Assembly (NCBI GenBank): GCA_026134085.1
Contig: JAOQIN010000006.1
Span: 193-64,192, forward strand
Direction of reading: 5' to 3'
DNA length: 64,000 nt
Origin: Candidatus Methanoxibalbensis ujae
GTDB lineage: Archaea > Halobacteriota > Syntropharchaeia > Alkanophagales > Methanospirareceae
Positions 3,744 through 26,249 of this stretch are shown one piece after another. How positions within the stretch are numbered: position 1 is the stretch's first letter; every line of letters starts with the position of its first letter. A program made the position numbers and the translations under genes. The notes under the pieces were generated by a model. That model did no database searches, was not told where the DNA came from, and saw only the letters and a program-made list of their open reading frames with translations.

Positions 3744-3902
3744 TGCGGTTCAACTGTCTTCAGCAGCGCATGGACGTTGACCTGATTGCAGAGCTAACCT
3801 AAACAACAGCCCACGCATGGCCCGGATGGGAGATATGGGAGATGTGGAGATGTGGGACGGGGATGAGCAACAGGGGGATGACAAAATATACAAAATATAA
3901 TA

Positions 3903-5480
3903 ATGGGAATGGGAAGGGATCTGCGAAAGTGGCAGGGAATTGAGCAGGAATTCAGGGTGGGGAAGCCGTTTGAGAGGACCGACATTCAGACGAGCATTGC
4001 ACTGAGCATGAACCTGTTTGATGCGCTGAAAAATCACAAGTTTTTCGGTTACTTGCCCGCGATCATTCATTCAAAGGACTATGATGGATTTTTGAGAAAT
4101 GGCTCTCGCATTTATCTGTGCAACTTCTCATTTGAGATCGCAACGCCTGAGTGCAGAAATGCGTATGAACTGCTGAAATACGATAAAGCAATGGAATTTT
4201 ATGTTCAGATAGCAGCTGAGCGAGTTAACAGTCGCGGAGAGAAAATGGAACACGGACATGATGAGAAAATGGAAAAAATGGAGAGTGGCGGAGAGGCTGA
4301 GCGCGTGAGACATGCCGTACAGTGCTGGCGTGCGAACACAGAGCTTCATCCCGCATTCACAAGGGGCACTCATGAGAACTATTCGGTTTCAAGGGATTTC
4401 AACAAAGAGAACTTCATACCTTTTCTGATAATCAAACCAATCTTCTTCGGCGCCGGAGGTTATGTGAGCAAAGCATTTTGCAGCATGAGGGATATGATTG
4501 AATCTGCCGAATATGTGATATCGCCGAGAGCAATAGCGACAAAACACATTTACGGAGGCGCTGGCGTGCGCAAACATCCACTTTTCTCAATAAAAGGAAT
4601 ATCAAACATGAGAATACATATAGATTCAGGTGAAGGATTGCGCGTTGAAATTGCAAGATTTCTGAACAACGCGATCACATCATTTGTCATACATGCGATA
4701 GAAGAGGGCATTATAAGAGATGTTGATGGCATAAACGAGCCTGTTGAGACTTTCAGAACGCTCTCAAGAAACACAGAAGGTGACTGGAAGCTCAAAACGA
4801 AAAGCGGAACGACTATCAATGCTATGGATATTATGAGCTCATACATAGACGCAATAGAAAATCTTTTTGACGAGAAGTCGGCGGATAACCTGGATATATA
4901 TGCGCTTAAAACATTTGAGAGGATTCATGATAAGATGAGTATGGGACTGCTTGAGGATGATTTTCTGATGAAAAGCGTTGAATGGCTTCTCAAATTGAAT
5001 ATTATAGAGAGGGGAAAATTCATTGAACTTGACAGTCTGCGTGAATCTGTTGATTATGCGATGCGGGATGTGCTTGAGAAAGATGCGAATATTATTGATG
5101 CAATGAGTGAGAGAGATAAAATGAGTGATGCGACGGAGGACAGGATGATGAAGATATCCGCGTGCTTCGCGTTTTCAAATGTCTGTGATGAAGATTTTTA
5201 CGAGAGTGTTGCCTGCTGCGCAGGCGTTGAGCGCATGCTGACGGATGAGGAGATAGGGGAGTCTCTCATTTATCCGCCTCCAGAGTCAAGGGGTGCGCTT
5301 CGTGTTATGCTGCTGGATGCGCTGAGGGATATTGGAGTTCCTCCTGAAAACATACTGGTGAGGTGGAACAGGATAGTCTGTCCGCCGACGAGAGACAGAG
5401 TTGTTGATTTTGACGATCTTGACGAGTGGAGTGAGAGGAAGATGCGCGATCTCGTGAAAAGAGTGAGAGAGACTTTTTAG
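3903..5480 (+). CDS. PafA/Dop (Pup ligase/depupylase, PafA2-like) family protein
   Basis: GIEQEF, FLRNGSRIYL, EIATPEC, GTHENY, ISPRA, RIHI..GE, VEWLLK, TDEEI...PPPESRG.LR, VRW in the order of actinobacterial PafA/Dop motifs. Confidence 0.88.
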   Translation: MGMGRDLRKWQGIEQEFRVGKPFERTDIQTSIALSMNLFDALKNHKFFGYLPAIIHSKDYDGFLRNGSRIYLCNFSFEIATPECRNAYELLKYDKAMEFYVQIAAERVNSRGEKMEHGHDEKMEKMESGGEAERVRHAVQCWRANTELHPAFTRGTHENYSVSRDFNKENFIPFLIIKPIFFGAGGYVSKAFCSMRDMIESAEYVISPRAIATKHIYGGAGVRKHPLFSIKGISNMRIHIDSGEGLRVEIARFLNNAITSFVIHAIEEGIIRDVDGINEPVETFRTLSRNTEGDWKLKTKSGTTINAMDIMSSYIDAIENLFDEKSADNLDIYALKTFERIHDKMSMGLLEDDFLMKSVEWLLKLNIIERGKFIELDSLRESVDYAMRDVLEKDANIIDAMSERDKMSDATEDRMMKISACFAFSNVCDEDFYESVACCAGVERMLTDEEIGESLIYPPPESRGALRVMLLDALRDIGVPPENILVRWNRIVCPPTRDRVVDFDDLDEWSERKMRDLVKRVRETF

Positions 5481-5492
5481 CGTTGTTCAGCT

Positions 5493-6209
5493 CTAGCGCT
5501 TTCTGTCAGCATATTCGCATATCTGCCTGAACTCACAGAACCTGCATTCCCATTCCGGTGGTCTCTCGATCTCAAAACCCTCAAAATCTTCAAAAGAGGG
5601 AGGTCTTTCATCCTCAAGCGCCTCAAAAAGTATCTTAGCACGAGTCACATAATTACGGACGACATCAGTGAGATCATGCATTTTCACATCAAACGAGATG
5701 TGAGTGCTGTTCAGCACCTCCATCACAATGCCCCTCTTCAAACTCAGTATGAACTCATCAACGCTCCCATCATATTTTACAGGAGGTGAAATCTTGTAAT
5801 AAAGAAGCTTTGCACGCTTCAGATCCGCCATATATGCATAAAACTTAACCTGATTCACATCTCTGGTTAGAGGACCGTATTGTGAGATTCTTTTTAAATC
5901 TCTCTTTGATTTGAAATCAATTGCAGTATCTCCAACAATTGCATCTATCTTTCCGGCAATAATGCCCTTTCCCGTGTCATAAGTGACAGATACTTCTGTG
6001 TTTTCATAATCTTTTTCTATGTATAAGTGGAAAAGACGGCCTATGAACATTCTCAATGCGCTTTCAAAATCAGGCATTTTTGGGAAACGGCGCTTATACC
6101 AGGCCTTCCGGATGCATGAGCCGAGCTCTGAAACTCCCACTCTGTGGTCGGAATAAGTTCCGCCCACTTCACTCAGGACATATGCGCGTATCTCATCCGG
6201 GATCTCCAT
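5493..6209 (-). CDS. Solo Cas4-like PD-(D/E)XK nuclease with four-Cys Fe-S motif
   Basis: VSELGSCIRKAWY, GRLFH, GKIDA..IDFKS, QVKFYAY, WECRFCEFRQIC; ATG 6209 preceded by RBS GGAGAGGTGG. Confidence 0.82.
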   Translation of the reverse strand: MEIPDEIRAYVLSEVGGTYSDHRVGVSELGSCIRKAWYKRRFPKMPDFESALRMFIGRLFHLYIEKDYENTEVSVTYDTGKGIIAGKIDAIVGDTAIDFKSKRDLKRISQYGPLTRDVNQVKFYAYMADLKRAKLLYYKISPPVKYDGSVDEFILSLKRGIVMEVLNSTHISFDVKMHDLTDVVRNYVTRAKILFEALEDERPPSFEDFEGFEIERPPEWECRFCEFRQICEYADRKR

Positions 6210-6819
6210 GATCACCACCTCTCCCTCCACTTCTCCTCTCCACAAATCTTCCGCGAAGCCATATTTCATCCGCACGCCTTATAACGGCATCGGCATCTCC
6301 GGCAAAAAAACGCCTGTAGCCTCGCAGGAATGCGTGTCTGAAGGAGTGTTCGTGAGATGCATGTGTCCCCCGGAGGCATTGAAAGAAGACGTGAATGTCA
6401 ACACCGCGAGATTCTGTTGTTGTGTCAAAGAAAGAGAGACCGAAATCTATGAGGTATACACGTCCGTCACAGCCGACTATGAAATTTGATGTTGTCAGGT
6501 CTCCGTGAATTATGGACGCGTTGTGAAGCTTCGCCACTGTTTCTCCCATTTTTTCACATATTTCCTCATCAAGCACATCACGTGCGATCTTTCCATGTAT
6601 GCGCTCCATCACAATTTCATAATCATCCACATCAAAGATGATCGGTGTTGGAACGCCGTGCCTTCGCGCTTCCGAAATAGTTTTTGCCTCCATCCTCGTG
6701 CGCTCGCGCCTCAACCTCTCATCAAGCACAGGCAGTCTGTATCTTTTCGGTATTCTCCGCTTGCACACAGTTTCGGAATGGAGTTCAACAACAGCCTCAG
6801 CACATTGCTCTCTCTCCAT
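6193..6819 (-). CDS. bud32: KEOPS kinase Bud32 (stand-alone)
   Basis: KRRIPKRYRLPVLDERLRRERTRMEA, IIHGDLTTSN, YLIDFGL motifs. Confidence 0.93.
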   Translation of the reverse strand: MEREQCAEAVVELHSETVCKRRIPKRYRLPVLDERLRRERTRMEAKTISEARRHGVPTPIIFDVDDYEIVMERIHGKIARDVLDEEICEKMGETVAKLHNASIIHGDLTTSNFIVGCDGRVYLIDFGLSFFDTTTESRGVDIHVFFQCLRGTHASHEHSFRHAFLRGYRRFFAGDADAVIRRADEIWLRGRFVERRSGGRGGDHGDPG

Positions 6820-9289: not shown

Positions 9290-9524
9290 TTTCAGATTGT
9301 TTTAGCATAAATTAAAATTTTCTATCGCCGAGTGTCTCCCGTCTCAATTCAATAATTCAATCAATGTGCATGTGAGGTGAGAGGGCGCATCAGTCGGGAT
9401 GAGCTCCGGTTGTCAGCGGGGTGATGGTCAGTGATGGTCAGTATGCAGGGCCAGGTGTAGAAGCAAAGTTTCGTTAAGAGATAATCATTAAAAACGGAAG
9501 CGGGAAGATAAGAGGTGGGGGATT

Positions 9525-10403
9525 ATGAGGGAGAACTTCAATGAGCGTGCAAACGCGCTCGCGATGGAGTATTGGAGATTGAAACATCTGCTGTCAAAAA
9601 AGGATGATGAGGAGAGACTTGAGGAGATAGAGCGGCTTCTGGAAAGAGGAATAAGTGGTAAATTGCGTGAAAGACTTGAAGCCGAAGCGCGTGTATTGAG
9701 AAAGGATAGGGAAGAAAGGATGAATGCAATGAAAAATCTTGAGATCATAAGCGGAGAATTGCTTGAGCTGACGGCAGAATTTGCACCTAATTTGGATTTT
9801 AATGGCAATTTCTTCCCGTATGACAGTGAACATGACCAGCTTTCTGAAGATTTTTTCAGAGCGATCACCGATATTTTTTTTGGAAACCCGTTGCGCAGAA
9901 TTGAACTGCGTGATGCTGTGTTCTCTTCTGAAGGCATAAAGGTGAATTCAGATGAATCACCGCTGCGCGTGCTCGACCGTGTGATTTCTCTCATACAGGA
10001 GACAGCGAAGAAGAAAATGGGCATGCAGAACTTGATAGACGACATATGGCGAAGGCTCAGTCAGAACGAATATGCGTTCATAGTTTTGAGCGTGCTCGTG
10101 TCCGCGGGAAGAGCGCTCAGCAAAGAGGAGATAAAGGAGATTTCATGCAGAAGGGACAGCGAATACAAAGAACTTGTGAAGGATTATGACAAAAAGCTGA
10201 TGGCTGCTCTGTCTTTCCTCGTGAGCGACGGCTGGGGTCATGATATAGTCCGTGAAAACGGTGGAAAATACGAGATCACCGGATTCGGCGAGTGGATATG
10301 GAAAGTATGCAACTCGGAAAGAGGTAAGAGAAACAGAAACTCTCAAAACAACGCAGACAGCATGAGCAGTATGCGCAGGATAGTGAGGTTTTTCAGAAGG
10401 TGA
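9525..10403 (+). CDS. Hypothetical protein: N-terminal coiled coil, C-terminal winged-helix-like region, basic amphipathic tail
   Basis: Long ORF with RBS (GAGGTGG); LSKEEI...KYEITGFG resembles wHTH; ends MRRIVRFFRR. Confidence 0.75.
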   Translation: MRENFNERANALAMEYWRLKHLLSKKDDEERLEEIERLLERGISGKLRERLEAEARVLRKDREERMNAMKNLEIISGELLELTAEFAPNLDFNGNFFPYDSEHDQLSEDFFRAITDIFFGNPLRRIELRDAVFSSEGIKVNSDESPLRVLDRVISLIQETAKKKMGMQNLIDDIWRRLSQNEYAFIVLSVLVSAGRALSKEEIKEISCRRDSEYKELVKDYDKKLMAALSFLVSDGWGHDIVRENGGKYEITGFGEWIWKVCNSERGKRNRNSQNNADSMSSMRRIVRFFRR

Positions 10404-14637: not shown

Positions 14638-17622
14638 ATGGCAGAGAGGGAAGGAGGTAGGCGGCGTGAGGAGATTGATAGAGAGGAGAGAAGAGGAAGC
14701 ATAATGCGCATAGCCGGCCCGCTTGTTGTTGCGGATAACATGCGGGGCTGTGAGATGTATGAGGTGGTGCGTGTCGGTGATGAGGGTCTGATGGGCGAGA
14801 CAATACGACTTGAAGGTGACCTTGCATACATTCAGGTTTACGAGGACACCACGGGTCTCAAACCTGGCGAGCCTGTCATCGGAACTGGTGCGCCGCTCTC
14901 AGTTGAGCTTGGTCCCGGCATATTGAAAAACTTCTACGACGGCATTCAGCGCCCTCTTTCGGCGATAAAGGAGAAAGCAGGCGGCGATTTCATCACGAGA
15001 GGCATTTATGTTGATGCGCTTGACGCCAGTTGTAAGTGGGATTTCAAGCCCACAGTTGATGAAGGCGCTTCAGTTGCTGGTGGCGACATAATAGGCGAAG
15101 TGCAGGAAACCAAAGTAATTACACATCGCATACTCGTGCCTCCGAGGATTGAGAGAGGAAAGCTTCTGGAGATAAGGAGTGGAAAGTTCACGGTTAACGA
15201 TGTCATCGCCCGCATTGAGACAGAAAGCGGCAGGGAGATAGAGTTGCGCATGAAACATCGCTGGCCCGTTCGCAAAGGCAGACCTTACAGGGAAAAGCTT
15301 GACCCCACAGTCCCTCTTCTGACAGGTCAGCGCGTGTGCGACACATTCTTTCCGATGGCAAAGGGAGGGACAGGCGCAATACCCGGCGGATTCGGAACGG
15401 GAAAATGTGTAACTGGCGACACACCAGTCCTGCTCGCTGACGGAAGCATAAAGAAAATAAGGGAGATATATGAGGCAAACAGGCTCAAAGGAGAGAGAGA
15501 GGAGCTCAAAGGAGAAAGAGAGAGGAGAGAAGAGAGAAGAGAGAGAGAAGAGAGAGGAGAGAGAAGAGAGAGAAGAGAGGGAGAGAGAGAAAAAAACGAG
15601 GAGATAACATTCCTCACGCACAAAATAGGAGTTTTCTCGCTCAACACTAAATTGAAAATTGAAAGATCGTGTGCAAATGCTGTCTTCAAAGGCAGAACAG
15701 ACAGAATATACAGAATAAAAACAAAAACTGGCAGAAAAGCAGAGGTGACACCGTCTCACAGGCTTTTCGTCCTCAGGAATGGAGCTGTGTGCGAAGTGCC
15801 GGCAGCATATCTGAAGGTCGGAGACCTCATGTTATTACCGAGAAGAATACCATTCTGTGAGCTGCAGCACTTGCGCATTGCGGGGAAACCTTTTGATGGT
15901 GATTTCGCAGAATTGATCGCATTCATCATCGCTGATGGCAAATTGAGAGGAGAGGACATCCTCTTTTACAGCGATGAGAGGCAGTTGATTGAGCGTGTGG
16001 CATCGTTGATCAAGCGTCTTTTTGGAGTTTCTGCAGATGTATTTCGGAAAGGTGTGCGCGTGAGGAGTGCCGCTCTCGCAAGTGCGCTGCGCAGTATAAT
16101 CAGAGGTCACTGTGTTCCTGAGATTGTGATGAGGTCTCCGCTGCATGTGTGTGCGCGCTTCATATCAGCGCTCTTCGCATGTGAGGGAGTGATAAGATGT
16201 GATGAGGCACTGATAATCGGAAGCAGGGAGATGCAGCTCGGACTGAGCTATCTGTTGCTGCGCTTCGGCATCATGCACGCGCTCCGTGATATCTCAGGAG
16301 GAAAGGGAGCTGTGGTCATACATGACCTTCCCGAATTCCACGGCATGTTCAAGCCGGAATTCCCGTCTGAGAGGTTCAGGAAGCTTGAGGAGATTCTGGG
16401 CGGTGAGGCGAGACGATGTTGTTCTGCATATGTGTCCGCGGATGTGTTCCTGGATGAGGTTGTTGAGGTGGAGGAGATAGAGGGCGAGCTGGATGTTTAT
16501 GACCTGACAGTGCCTCTTTTCCACAACTTCATAGCGGGTTTCGGTCCGATGTTCCTTCACAACACAGTCATGCAGCATCAGCTCGCGAAATGGTCGGACG
16601 CGAGGGTCATCGTTTACATAGGATGCGGTGAGCGAGGGAACGAGATGACAGAGGTTCTTGAGGATTTCCCCAAGTTGATTGACCCATACAGCGGTGAAAA
16701 GCTTATGGAGCGCTCAACGCTAATTGCGAACACATCAAACATGCCCGTGGCAGCGCGTGAGGCATCCATATACACGGGAATCACAATCGCAGAGTATTAC
16801 AGGGACATGGGTTACGATGTCGCGATACAGGCGGATTCAACATCAAGATGGGCTGAGGCGTTGAGAGAGATTTCAGGCAAGCTTGAGGAGATGCCCGGCG
16901 AGGAGGGATATCCGGCATATCTCGCCGCACGCCTCGCGGATTTCTATGAGAGAGCGGGAAGGGTAAAAACTCTCGGAAGCGAGCCCCGCATCGGAAGTGT
17001 GACTGTTGTGGGCGCTGTGTCACCGCCGGGAGGAGACTTCTCAGAGCCAGTAACGCAGAACACTCTTCGTGTTGTGAGGGTTTTCTGGGCGCTTGACACC
17101 TCGCTCGCACACAGAAGACATTTCCCCGCAATATCCTGGCTGCGAAGCTATTCGCTTTATACCGAACACCTCAGAGAATGGTTCAGCAGGAATGTGGCAC
17201 CTGATTTCATAGAGCAGCGTGATGAGATGATGGCAATACTCCAGAATGAGGCGCAGCTTCAGGAAATCGTGCAGCTCGTTGGCGCTGATGCACTGCCCGA
17301 GCGTGACCGCCTCATTTTGGAGGTCGCTCGTATGATCCGTGAGGACTTCCTCCAGCAGAACGCATATCACAACATAGACTCATTCTGCTCGCTTGAAAAG
17401 CAGTATCTGATGGCTAAAATAGTATTGGAATGGTATGCAATGGCGAGAGATGCAATGGAAAGCGGCGTTGGAATTGCTAAAATAGCAAGAATGCATGTTA
17501 AAGATGTGATTGCTCGTATGAAATATGAGAGGAACGAGACATTCAGAGAGAAATATGAGGAGATAATGAGAGCAATGAAGGACGAATTTGAGCAGTTGAA
17601 GAGGGAAAGTGGAAAAATGTGA
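14638..17622 (+). CDS. atpA: A/V-type ATP synthase subunit A, intein-containing
   Basis: [22 protein letters not shown]-[intein]-[31 protein letters not shown]. Confidence 0.97.
15406..16563 (+). mobile_element. Intein (386 aa) with LAGLIDADG-type endonuclease region, inserted in the AtpA Walker A motif
   Basis: Starts CVTGDT, block [21 protein letters not shown] and [10 protein letters not shown] motifs, ends VYDLTV..HNF...LHN followed by +1 Thr. Confidence 0.93.
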
Positions 17623-25047: not shown

Positions 25048-26181
25048 GTGGAAGCGGATATTCAGAACAGGATGGCAGAGAGGGGAGGATTGAGAAATTT
25101 TGAGAAGAAGGAAATTTTTGAGAAAAAGGAAAGGAGGAGGACGTGTTTTCATGACAGGGAAAGAGAAATAGAGGAGATAATGAACATCTTAAATACTGAA
25201 CCTACTTTGATTACTTTCATATATGGTCCTATAAATTCAGGTAAAACTGAACTTATTGACCATCTGGCTGAGCAATTACCTGAGAATTATGTTGTATTCA
25301 ATGTGAATTTGCGCGGTAAATTTATATCAGATTACAGAGATTTTGTGCGTGCTTTATTCAAAATAGAAAGAGAGAAGACATACAAAGACATAATCAGGAA
25401 AATATCCGAAGTCTCTGTGAAGGCATTGAAATTTGTAGGCATTCCAGTAACGGAAGATATATTGAATTTACTGTTTAAGGAGCGGACTTATGAGGATGTT
25501 TTTGAGTTTCTTGAGGATTATTTTATGAAAATAGGTGAGAATAAAAATTCCGTATTGATTTTGGATGAGTTACAGGTGATAAAGGATGTAAAAGTGGATG
25601 AACTGCTCAAGCTTTTTAATTTCTTCATTCGCCTGACGAAGGAGTTGCATTTGTGTCATGTGTTCGCAATAACATCTGATTCGCTCTTCGTTGAACGCAT
25701 TTACAGAGAGGCGATGTTGCAAGGGCGCTGCAGATACTTATTTGTGGATGATTTTGACTATGAAACGGCGATGGCCTTCCTGAATAAATATAACTTCGGA
25801 GAAAAGGAGAGGGAAATGGTATGGGAGTATGTGGGCGGTAAGCCAGTTTATTTGGTTGAGCTTGCGAATGCGAAAATGAATGGAAAGGACATAGAAGAGG
25901 AAGTGAAGAAGTTGTTGAAGATTAGAACAAATCAAATACTTTCAATATTTGACGAAATATCGCTTCGTAAGGTCAAATATTCGGAGGAGGCAATAATGGA
26001 GGAATTCAGGAAATTTGAGAGGGAGGAGATAATACAGTATGATAGGATGAACAAAGAAAAAATATTTCTTGTTGAAAGGAACATTCTGTTCATTGACCCG
26101 ACACAAAGAACAGTAAAACCACAGTCAAAATTGGACTTGCTTGCCATAAGGAATGTGTTAAAGTGCGAGAGGAAAAAGTGA
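25048..26181 (+). CDS. Archaeal ATPase (ATPase_2 family)
   Basis: F.DREREI, YGPINSGKT, LILDELQ, LTKELHL.HV, VGGKP; AT-rich relative to neighbours; start uncertain. Confidence 0.88.
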   Translation: MEADIQNRMAERGGLRNFEKKEIFEKKERRRTCFHDREREIEEIMNILNTEPTLITFIYGPINSGKTELIDHLAEQLPENYVVFNVNLRGKFISDYRDFVRALFKIEREKTYKDIIRKISEVSVKALKFVGIPVTEDILNLLFKERTYEDVFEFLEDYFMKIGENKNSVLILDELQVIKDVKVDELLKLFNFFIRLTKELHLCHVFAITSDSLFVERIYREAMLQGRCRYLFVDDFDYETAMAFLNKYNFGEKEREMVWEYVGGKPVYLVELANAKMNGKDIEEEVKKLLKIRTNQILSIFDEISLRKVKYSEEAIMEEFRKFEREEIIQYDRMNKEKIFLVERNILFIDPTQRTVKPQSKLDLLAIRNVLKCERKK

Positions 26182-26249
26182 AAGACATGAGAAGAGAAAT
26201 TAGAACGGGAAACAATTTTGATTTTGCCTGCAGTATTGATCATGATGGA

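Follow-up and report, generated by a model that had tools for sequence, protein, structure and literature searches.

Homologues of the pupylation enzymes PafA and Dop reportedly also occur outside the Actinobacteria, in the UBact-type loci that a 2017 paper is said to have described from Gram-negative bacteria, where they accompany a small tag whose last two residues are Gly-Glu or Gly-Gln. Here we analyze a gene of the same enzyme family from an archaeon, Candidatus Methanoxibalbensis ujae. It occupies positions 3903-5480 of a 64,000-nucleotide stretch of DNA (assembly GCA_026134085.1, contig JAOQIN010000006.1, positions 193 to 64,192 of the forward strand), which we refer to throughout as the window. 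A sequence-only reading of the window had singled this gene out as a divergent archaeal PafA/Dop enzyme with an altered active site.

In the excerpts of PMC7947786, PMC12288473 and PMC11354881 on which we draw, pupylation is presented as a bacterial trait; within those excerpts, the first paper names bacterial phyla only, and the other two bring in archaea only under proteasomes and ubiquitin-fold tags. Our search for literature on archaeal Pup-ligase genes found none, with the proviso that the supplementary network of PMC7947786 (2,689 sequences) may include archaea. The family assignment itself is already known, as public records label such proteins PafA2-family. What is new is the recognition of a third, remodeled paralogue that stands alone in the genome, the finding that an Asp-to-Cys change at its catalytic position is a lineage trait common to this paralogue and a second one, and the connection, predicted by modeling, between the third paralogue and a tag that is encoded elsewhere.

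We call the window gene and its closest relatives type A, and the two other archaeal paralogues B and C. The view that we favor, with moderate confidence, is that type A is an accessory tag-handling enzyme, probably of the ligase type, belonging to a Pup-like system of the anaerobic methanotrophic archaea of group 1 (ANME-1, Methanophagales).

Results

The window protein has the family signature and fold of PafA and Dop

The gene is a single reading frame of 525 codons that begins with ATG and is open throughout:

3903..5480, plus strand: type A Pup-ligase-family gene (P0001), 525 aa; identified from the open reading frame (ORF), Pfam, AF2 and Foldseek

All nine of the PafA/Dop motif strings that the sequence-only reading had listed are present in the order claimed: GIEQEF (residues 12-17), FLRNGSRIYL (63-72), EIATPEC (78-84), GTHENY (155-160), SPRA (207-210), RIHI (237-240), EWLLK (360-364), TDEEI...PPPESRGALR (447-467) and VRW (486-488). 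The two checks it had proposed, a Pup_ligase profile search and a fold comparison, gave consistent answers. The Pfam model Pup_ligase (PF03136) matches the protein at 140.3 bits against a cut-off of 25 (E 1.2e-40), which is far beyond chance. The NCBIfam models for Dop (TIGR03688) and PafA (TIGR03686) score 98.4 and 93.5 bits, respectively, far below their curated cut-offs of 492.3 and 551.3. When a subfamily profile was searched against the PDB, it retrieved Dop and PafA chains only (five distinct sequences at E <=0.001), with Dop 4b0r at E 3.1e-43 and PafA 4bjr at E 2.9e-34.

An AF2 model of the window protein built on a 149-row alignment reached a predicted local distance difference test (pLDDT) of 90.2 and a predicted template modeling (pTM) score of 0.92; an earlier model from a 22-row alignment (pLDDT 56) was discarded. 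Compared by Foldseek, the retained model matches Dop 4b0r at E 7.5e-24 (TMq 0.72, TMt 0.82) and the PafA-Pup structure 4bjr at E 1.8e-23 (TM 0.73/0.76), and far more weakly YbdK/GCS2 (1r8g, E 8.2e-6) and glutamine synthetases (about 1e-3). The agreement of Pfam, PDB-profile and Foldseek matches makes it secure that the window protein is a Pup_ligase family member with the two-domain PafA/Dop fold.

A likely Pup-like tagging operon in the same genome

A genome-wide search for paralogues, also suggested by the sequence-only reading, turned up a tandem pair of further Pup_ligase genes on contig C44; the type A gene is on contig C56 of this genome. The tandem genes are part of a four-gene operon (genome G000, which is the window genome; contig C44, locus L006, 6323-11847):

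First gene: PAN/Mpa-like AAA ATPase, 542 aa, ending in ...GMHY
Within the operon: paralogue B, 599 aa, with RIYICTGGHLE (Cys at the Asp position), SSRDEPL and THESY
9894-11537 of L006: paralogue C (P0123), 547 aa, with the Asp and NTRDQPHA kept
Last gene: small tag-like protein ending in ...IMPYEIYATAGE, acidic and then Lys-rich

The order AAA ATPase, B, C is the same in 11/11 loci, one from the window genome and ten from other genomes of the order. The small protein is present at nine of them, blastp at 1e-3 having given no match in L022 and L028, and in all nine its N-terminal half is acidic, a helix-like stretch rich in lysine is present and the end, ...YEIYAT[SA]GE, is invariant. It matches no Pfam or NCBIfam model, and by these models has no detectable similarity to Pup. 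A tblastn search of the whole genome for a second tag gene returned the C44 copy alone, with the next match at E 0.04, and in a scan of the genome's small ORFs 69/18,521 end in GE or GQ, the C44 one alone being tag-like as judged by composition only. The genes for the 20S proteasome alpha and beta subunits lie on two further contigs. We consider the C44 operon likely to be the core of an archaeal Pup-like tagging system, and its small GE-ended protein bears out the earlier suggestion that a tag is encoded elsewhere.

Paralogue C has THGNL where the HEN motif is expected and TPS in place of TPE, which removes two acidic ligands, and these changes recur in a separate C-like clade (P0153, P0156, P0160 and P0253). 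At locus L024 (G009:C9, 6386-8328, minus strand), two ORFs (436 and 211 aa) stand in place of an undivided paralogue C, owing to either a frameshift or a sequencing error.

Type A and paralogue B are sister groups outside the PafA and Dop clade

The position of these proteins in the family was examined with a maximum-likelihood tree (quick search, LG+G4) of 94 rows, comprising 15 type A, 14 type B and 10 type C or C-like sequences along with 55 representatives of at least 400 aa picked from 150 listed. Type A is monophyletic (support 100), as is type B (89); together they form a clade (98), and type C forms a separate one (99). All of the rows that pass the curated cut-offs for PafA (6) or Dop (2) fall within a clade of 36 rows on the far side of the tree (support 99), and seven rows from the A/B/C side gave no match to the curated PafA and Dop models at E 1e-60. 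Types A, B and C are thus not orthologues of PafA or Dop.

Type A is best explained as the product of an ancient duplication of paralogue B, the operon gene to which it is 40-45% identical. Likenesses between the two sisters include the Cys at the Asp position, GIE[QH]EF, EIATPEC, an R-x-H motif and the predicted tag groove. Paralogue B differs in having an insertion of about 90 aa in the C-terminal domain and an S[ST]RDEPL loop, both absent from type A, one residue more between the Cys and the next Glu, and HES where type A has HEN. It is also operon-encoded and found in 65/68 genomes, whereas type A is unlinked from the operon and intact in 3/68. NCBI records name paralogue B either "proteasome accessory factor PafA2 family protein" or "Pup--protein ligase".

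Because paralogue B carries the same Cys (8/8 sequences), the substitution is a trait of the ANME-1 A+B lineage. The description of the window protein as a divergent archaeal PafA/Dop member with an altered active site therefore stands, but the Cys is not particular to the orphan copy. A further protein, P0126, is B-like and still has the Asp (YIDLS), and JGI records suggest that it shares one contig of 14,234 bases with the C-like P0153. If so, a B/C pair would exist in another lineage as well, and the Cys would be a later change in ANME-1.

The active site is remodeled around a conserved set of ligands

The residues discussed below were compared across 14 type A sequences that are about 50% identical to one another. 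They map to the following features of the window gene:

3936..3953, plus strand: GIEQEF, the GhExE nucleotide/Mg motif (E14, E16); both glutamates in 14/14 type A sequences
4119..4121, plus strand: TGC codon for Cys73, at the catalytic Asp position (Dop D94); from alignments
4134..4154, plus strand: EIATPEC with the acidic residues E78 and E83; both in 14/14 type A sequences
4365..4382, plus strand: GTHENY (H157, E158, N159); in 14/14 type A sequences, with HES in type B and HGN in type C
4587..4622, plus strand: SIKGISNMRIHI, with Lys231 at the Dop R227 position, a shortened loop, R237 and H239; from alignments
5241..5303, plus strand: TDEEIGESLIYPPPESRGALR, a C-terminal-domain helix forming one wall of the predicted tag-binding groove; from the predicted complex

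The most conspicuous change is at residue 73. Cys73 falls opposite Dop D94 in a pairwise HMMER alignment, in a profile HMMER alignment and in three MAFFT alignments (22, 161 and 149 sequences), such that the reported Asp-to-Cys change is no alignment artifact. In the 149-row alignment, the column of Dop D94 and PafA D57 holds Cys in 14/14 type A and 8/8 type B sequences; among the 127 other family members, Asp is found in 121 and Cys in 2. D94 is termed the catalytic Asp in Table 1 of PMC7947786 and is proposed to activate the hydrolytic water of Dop in PMC8599861.

Changes are also found in the segment that follows the phosphate-binding position. Opposite Dop R227, which holds the catalytic phosphate according to the excerpt of PMC8599861, 12 of the 14 type A sequences have Lys and two have Arg, and the six residues that follow Lys231 in the alignment (DEPHAD in Dop) are deleted in the window protein. 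The replacement of NTRDEPHA by SIKGISN noted in the sequence-only reading is confirmed in this way and proved to be conserved across 14/14 type A sequences. Its observation of SFE at the site where HPE is expected is correct for the window protein and a twin that is 98% identical to it, but does not extend to the remaining type A sequences: P0003 has SLE and the other 11 have LPE, HPE or LLE. Among the Dop residues lost in this deletion is H231, part of the lining of the nucleotide pocket (PMC8599861); the corresponding His is already absent from paralogue B and many other family members.

Around these changes, much of the catalytic machinery is retained. E14, E16, N66, R69, E78, E83, H157, E158, N159, Y160, S207 and H239 are kept in 14/14 type A sequences, and R237 in 13/14. 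The GhExE motif to which the first two residues belong is the one named in section 6 of the excerpted PMC7947786. By alignment, R237 and H239 lie opposite Dop R239 and H241, the role of the latter being described in PMC8599861.

A complex with the operon tag is predicted

We co-folded the window protein with residues 70-123 of the operon tag, each with its own alignment, in three runs accompanied by three controls. The median interface score (ipSAE) was 0.86, compared with 0.02 for the best control. In calibration, the ipSAE mark was reached by 58/80 solved complexes and 2/110 mismatched pairs, a yardstick that holds only roughly here since own alignments were used. Contact agreement among the runs was at least 54% and the pLDDT of the partner at least 68. 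The predicted interface is made up of helices 99-106 and 415-456 plus the strand after GIEQEF, and residues 447-456 of the TDEEIGESLIYPPPESRGALR helix belong to it and are conserved between types A and B. More broadly, the consensus residues of A and B are identical at 31/45 interface positions versus 234/480 elsewhere. The groove is lined with conserved acidic residues (E106, E147, D431, E434, E449 and E453) that face the Lys-rich tag.

The window protein is accordingly predicted by these models to bind the tag of the operon. We read the co-fold result as likeness to the solved PafA-Pup and Dop-Pup complexes and not as proof of binding.

Type A is rare, often broken and, where intact, constrained

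We compared 68 genomes of the order, the window genome included. A full-length B-type match (43-49% identity) is present in 65 of them, and none was found at E 1e-30 in G070, G072 and G074. Type A sequence, by comparison, occurs in only eight. It is intact in G000, G009 and G023 and disrupted in the other five: by 10 in-frame stops in G074, by an internal deletion and frame change in G011, by replacement of the first ~200 residues with unrelated sequence containing a stop in G021, by truncation after IEWLMK in G004, and by reduction to a 67-aa remnant in G007. Outside the order, 14 genomes were searched, and none had a type A match. Intact type A proteins make up another 13 clusters in protein databases; NCBI labels some of these PafA2-family proteins of Methanophagales or Candidatus Methanospirare.

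Ratios of nonsynonymous to synonymous substitution rates (dN/dS) were calculated by the Nei-Gojobori method with our own script, using 10 type A coding sequences in 14 pairs. They lie between 0.09 and 0.22 in 13 of these pairs, the outlier of 0.375 resting on only 44 differences, and the window gene itself gives 0.21 and 0.22 against two near-identical metagenome copies. Intact type A genes are therefore under purifying selection, and the corresponding values for type B (0.04-0.10, five pairs) indicate tighter constraint than for type A. Purifying selection combined with patchy presence suggests that type A is functional but dispensable. The implication of the sequence-only reading that this gene forms the core of a protein-modification system is not upheld: type A is a dispensable side copy, intact in 3/68 genomes.

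Genomic neighborhood and other features of the window gene

As the sequence-only reading had stated, there is no tag or proteasome gene next to the type A gene. Among the 20 ORFs scanned around it (window 1-21 kb), we found no tag, unfoldase or proteasome genes and instead housekeeping genes. Genes for TFE-alpha, CetZ, a RIO-type kinase and an intein-containing A-type ATPase subunit A mark the window as archaeal. The whole window contig has just one small ORF with a GE or GQ end, and this frame of 41 aa (window 26090-26215) is hydrophobic. The neighbors of type A vary among genomes: when 15 window neighbors were searched by tblastn against six loci of other genomes for a conserved partner gene, the only one recovered was a PD-(D/E)XK gene common to G009, and a Pfam scan of 34 ORFs neighboring type A loci yielded unrelated housekeeping genes. 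This PD-(D/E)XK nuclease-family gene (window 5493-6275, minus strand) is convergent with the type A gene across a gap of 12 nt and has a counterpart at the same place in G009 (65% identity); the remaining genomes examined lack this neighbor.

Three further features belong to the type A gene or its upstream region:

3880..3902, plus strand: AT-rich stretch, a candidate for an archaeal TATA-like promoter; read from sequence
4236..4313, plus strand: charged, His-rich, lineage-specific insert, residues 112-137; from the alignment, block pLDDT 60-76
5016..5132, plus strand: helical insert of ~39 residues, residues 372-410; from the alignment, block pLDDT 57-66

The AT-rich stretch lies directly 5' of the start codon, inside a gap of 159 nt behind the upstream gene. 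Both inserts, the first of which is rich in Glu, Lys, His and Met, are confined to the window protein and its 98% identical twin. Elsewhere in the window, the gene for the A-type ATP synthase subunit A (14638-17622, plus strand, 994 aa) contains an intein with a LAGLIDADG domain (Pfam), and at 9488-10403 two long ORFs of 292 aa (plus strand) and 185 aa (minus strand), both without a Pfam match, overlap.

Discussion

The combination of a retained fold, a retained ligand set and a predicted fit to the operon tag is what leads us to favor a role for type A as an accessory tag-handling enzyme. In the mechanism that we envision, type A is a stand-alone third paralogue that would work with the AAA ATPase, paralogues B and C and the tag of the C44 operon. 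The tag, of roughly 85-100 aa, acidic and then lysine-rich with a Gly-Glu end, would be bound through its lysine-rich C-terminal helix in the acidic groove common to A and B. Its terminal Glu would thereby be set on a beta-sheet cradle that retains the GhExE glutamates, E78, E83, H157-E158-N159, Lys231, R237 and H239. Nucleotide/Mg-dependent chemistry on this Glu would then follow, with Cys73 taking the place of the Asp that acts as the general base in PafA and Dop.

Our lean toward conjugation comes from the paralogues. Since paralogue C has lost two acidic ligands, B is likelier to be the ligase of the operon, and type A is probably a descendant of B with a complete ligand set. On this argument, type A is most likely a second, accessory conjugating enzyme, and it would have a target range of its own because it lacks the ~90-aa insertion of B and has reshaped loops beside the catalytic position. 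A ligase or hydrolase call from the "alpha-loop" residues described in the excerpted PMC7947786 was tried and set aside, as types A and B resemble neither PafA nor Dop there.

Several observations weigh against our proposal. The residue that serves as the catalytic base in PafA and Dop is replaced by Cys73, and the loop behind the phosphate-binding residue, where H231 sits in Dop, is six residues shorter. The position of A, B and C outside the PafA+Dop clade means that no function can be transferred to them by orthology. In the co-folded complex, the last three residues of the tag are placed without confidence, and solved PafA-Pup and Dop-Pup structures in the model's memory may lie behind the pass. 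Type A is often lost, being intact in three of the 68 genomes and broken in five more, and it evolves faster than B: between G000 and G009, A has a dN of 0.30 and B one of 0.108, with tree paths of 0.58 and 0.13, respectively. Finally, Cys73 and E78 are spaced as in Dop, with one residue fewer between them than in B and PafA, and this speaks somewhat for a hydrolase.

This last point is the basis for the strongest competing view, in which type A removes tags as a Dop-like isopeptidase and is not a ligase. We regard this as unlikely, though it deserves to be taken seriously. Five residues separate the catalytic position from the next conserved Glu in type A, as in Dop, compared with six in B and PafA, and an insertion at this point is given in Table 1 of PMC7947786 (excerpt) as a feature separating PafA, which is longer, from Dop, which is shorter. 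The scores also fall slightly on the Dop side, for both the NCBIfam models (98.4 vs 93.5 bits) and the PDB profile search (3.1e-43 vs 2.9e-34), but these differences are small and, with A, B and C lying outside the PafA+Dop clade, there is no Dop orthologue among them. Moreover, the very Asp thought to activate water in Dop (PMC8599861, as excerpted) is the one replaced in type A, and paralogue C, in which it is kept, is an equally good candidate for a tag remover.

Alternatively, type A may be a pseudoenzyme, a non-catalytic tag binder that sequesters or presents the tag or regulates B or C. The missing catalytic Asp and shortened active-site loop are consistent with such a role, as are faster evolution than B, dispensability, and a conserved groove with predicted tag binding. 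Nevertheless, we find this improbable: metal and phosphate ligands are kept across 14 sequences at ~50% identity, which would be unexpected were the groove alone important, and paralogue B, present in 65/68 genomes, carries the same Cys, so that the Cys by itself is no mark of inactivity.

The idea that type A is a decaying duplicate without present function in the window genome draws on the five broken copies among the eight genomes with type A sequence and on the long terminal branch of the window copy (0.36). That the window copy is intact, shows low dN/dS against its near-identical relatives, keeps all key residues and has a confidently predicted fold makes decay quite improbable to us. 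As for type A having left protein tagging for small-molecule ligation like that of YbdK/GCS2 or glutamine synthetase, the fold family does include such enzymes (the weaker Foldseek matches above) and the gene is isolated in a setting of metabolic and housekeeping genes, but it retains the PafA/Dop-type C-terminal domain and a tag groove conserved with B and scores high in the predicted complex with the tag, which leaves very little room for this view.

Returning to type A as an accessory enzyme of the tagging system, one attractive extension concerns the Cys itself. Rather than merely standing in for the Asp, its thiolate might attack the activated acyl phosphate of the tag Glu to give an enzyme-tag thioester, from which the tag would pass to a lysine or another carrier. 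We consider this scenario a long shot. If true, the Cys of A and B would mark a change of chemistry in a ligase of the glutamine-synthetase fold, type A would add a second enzyme that forms thioesters and serves targets of its own, and strictly anaerobic archaea would have an E1/E2-like covalent relay independent of the ubiquitin enzymes.

Whichever chemistry type A performs, the findings suggest that ANME-1 archaea carry a full look-alike of pupylation that has been diversified through a third enzyme with a remodeled active site. Types A and B, with Cys where 121/127 other family members have Asp, amount to a natural test of the role of this residue and of a thiol's capacity to assume or alter its chemistry, and the patchy presence and repeated decay of type A provide a natural comparison for the use of an extra tag enzyme. 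As a probable side branch of the tagging system, type A itself carries moderate weight.

The UBact-type loci are bacterial and the present genes archaeal, with a tag that matches no Pfam or NCBIfam model. Type A shares with PafA (TIGR03686; 4b0t, 4bjr) the fold and two-domain build and, in the model, a groove in which a disordered tag lies with its helical C-terminal part; it differs in having Cys for the catalytic Asp, and the ANME-1 tag differs from that of the PafA-Pup pair in lacking similarity to Pup detectable with Pfam or NCBIfam and in the lysine-rich nature of its binding part. Relative to Dop (TIGR03688; 4b0r, 5lrt, 7oxv-7oyh), D94 has become Cys and R227 Lys, DEPHAD is deleted and the Dop-loop is missing, Dop residues 34-81 lying opposite only ~20 profile positions (41-60); this loop comprises ~37 residues, Ala43-Val79, in M. 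smegmatis Dop (PMC7947786 Table 1, from the excerpt). What type A and Dop have in common is the fold, the GhExE motif, the E99/E104-type glutamates, HEN, the counterparts of R239 and H241, and the residue spacing after the catalytic position.

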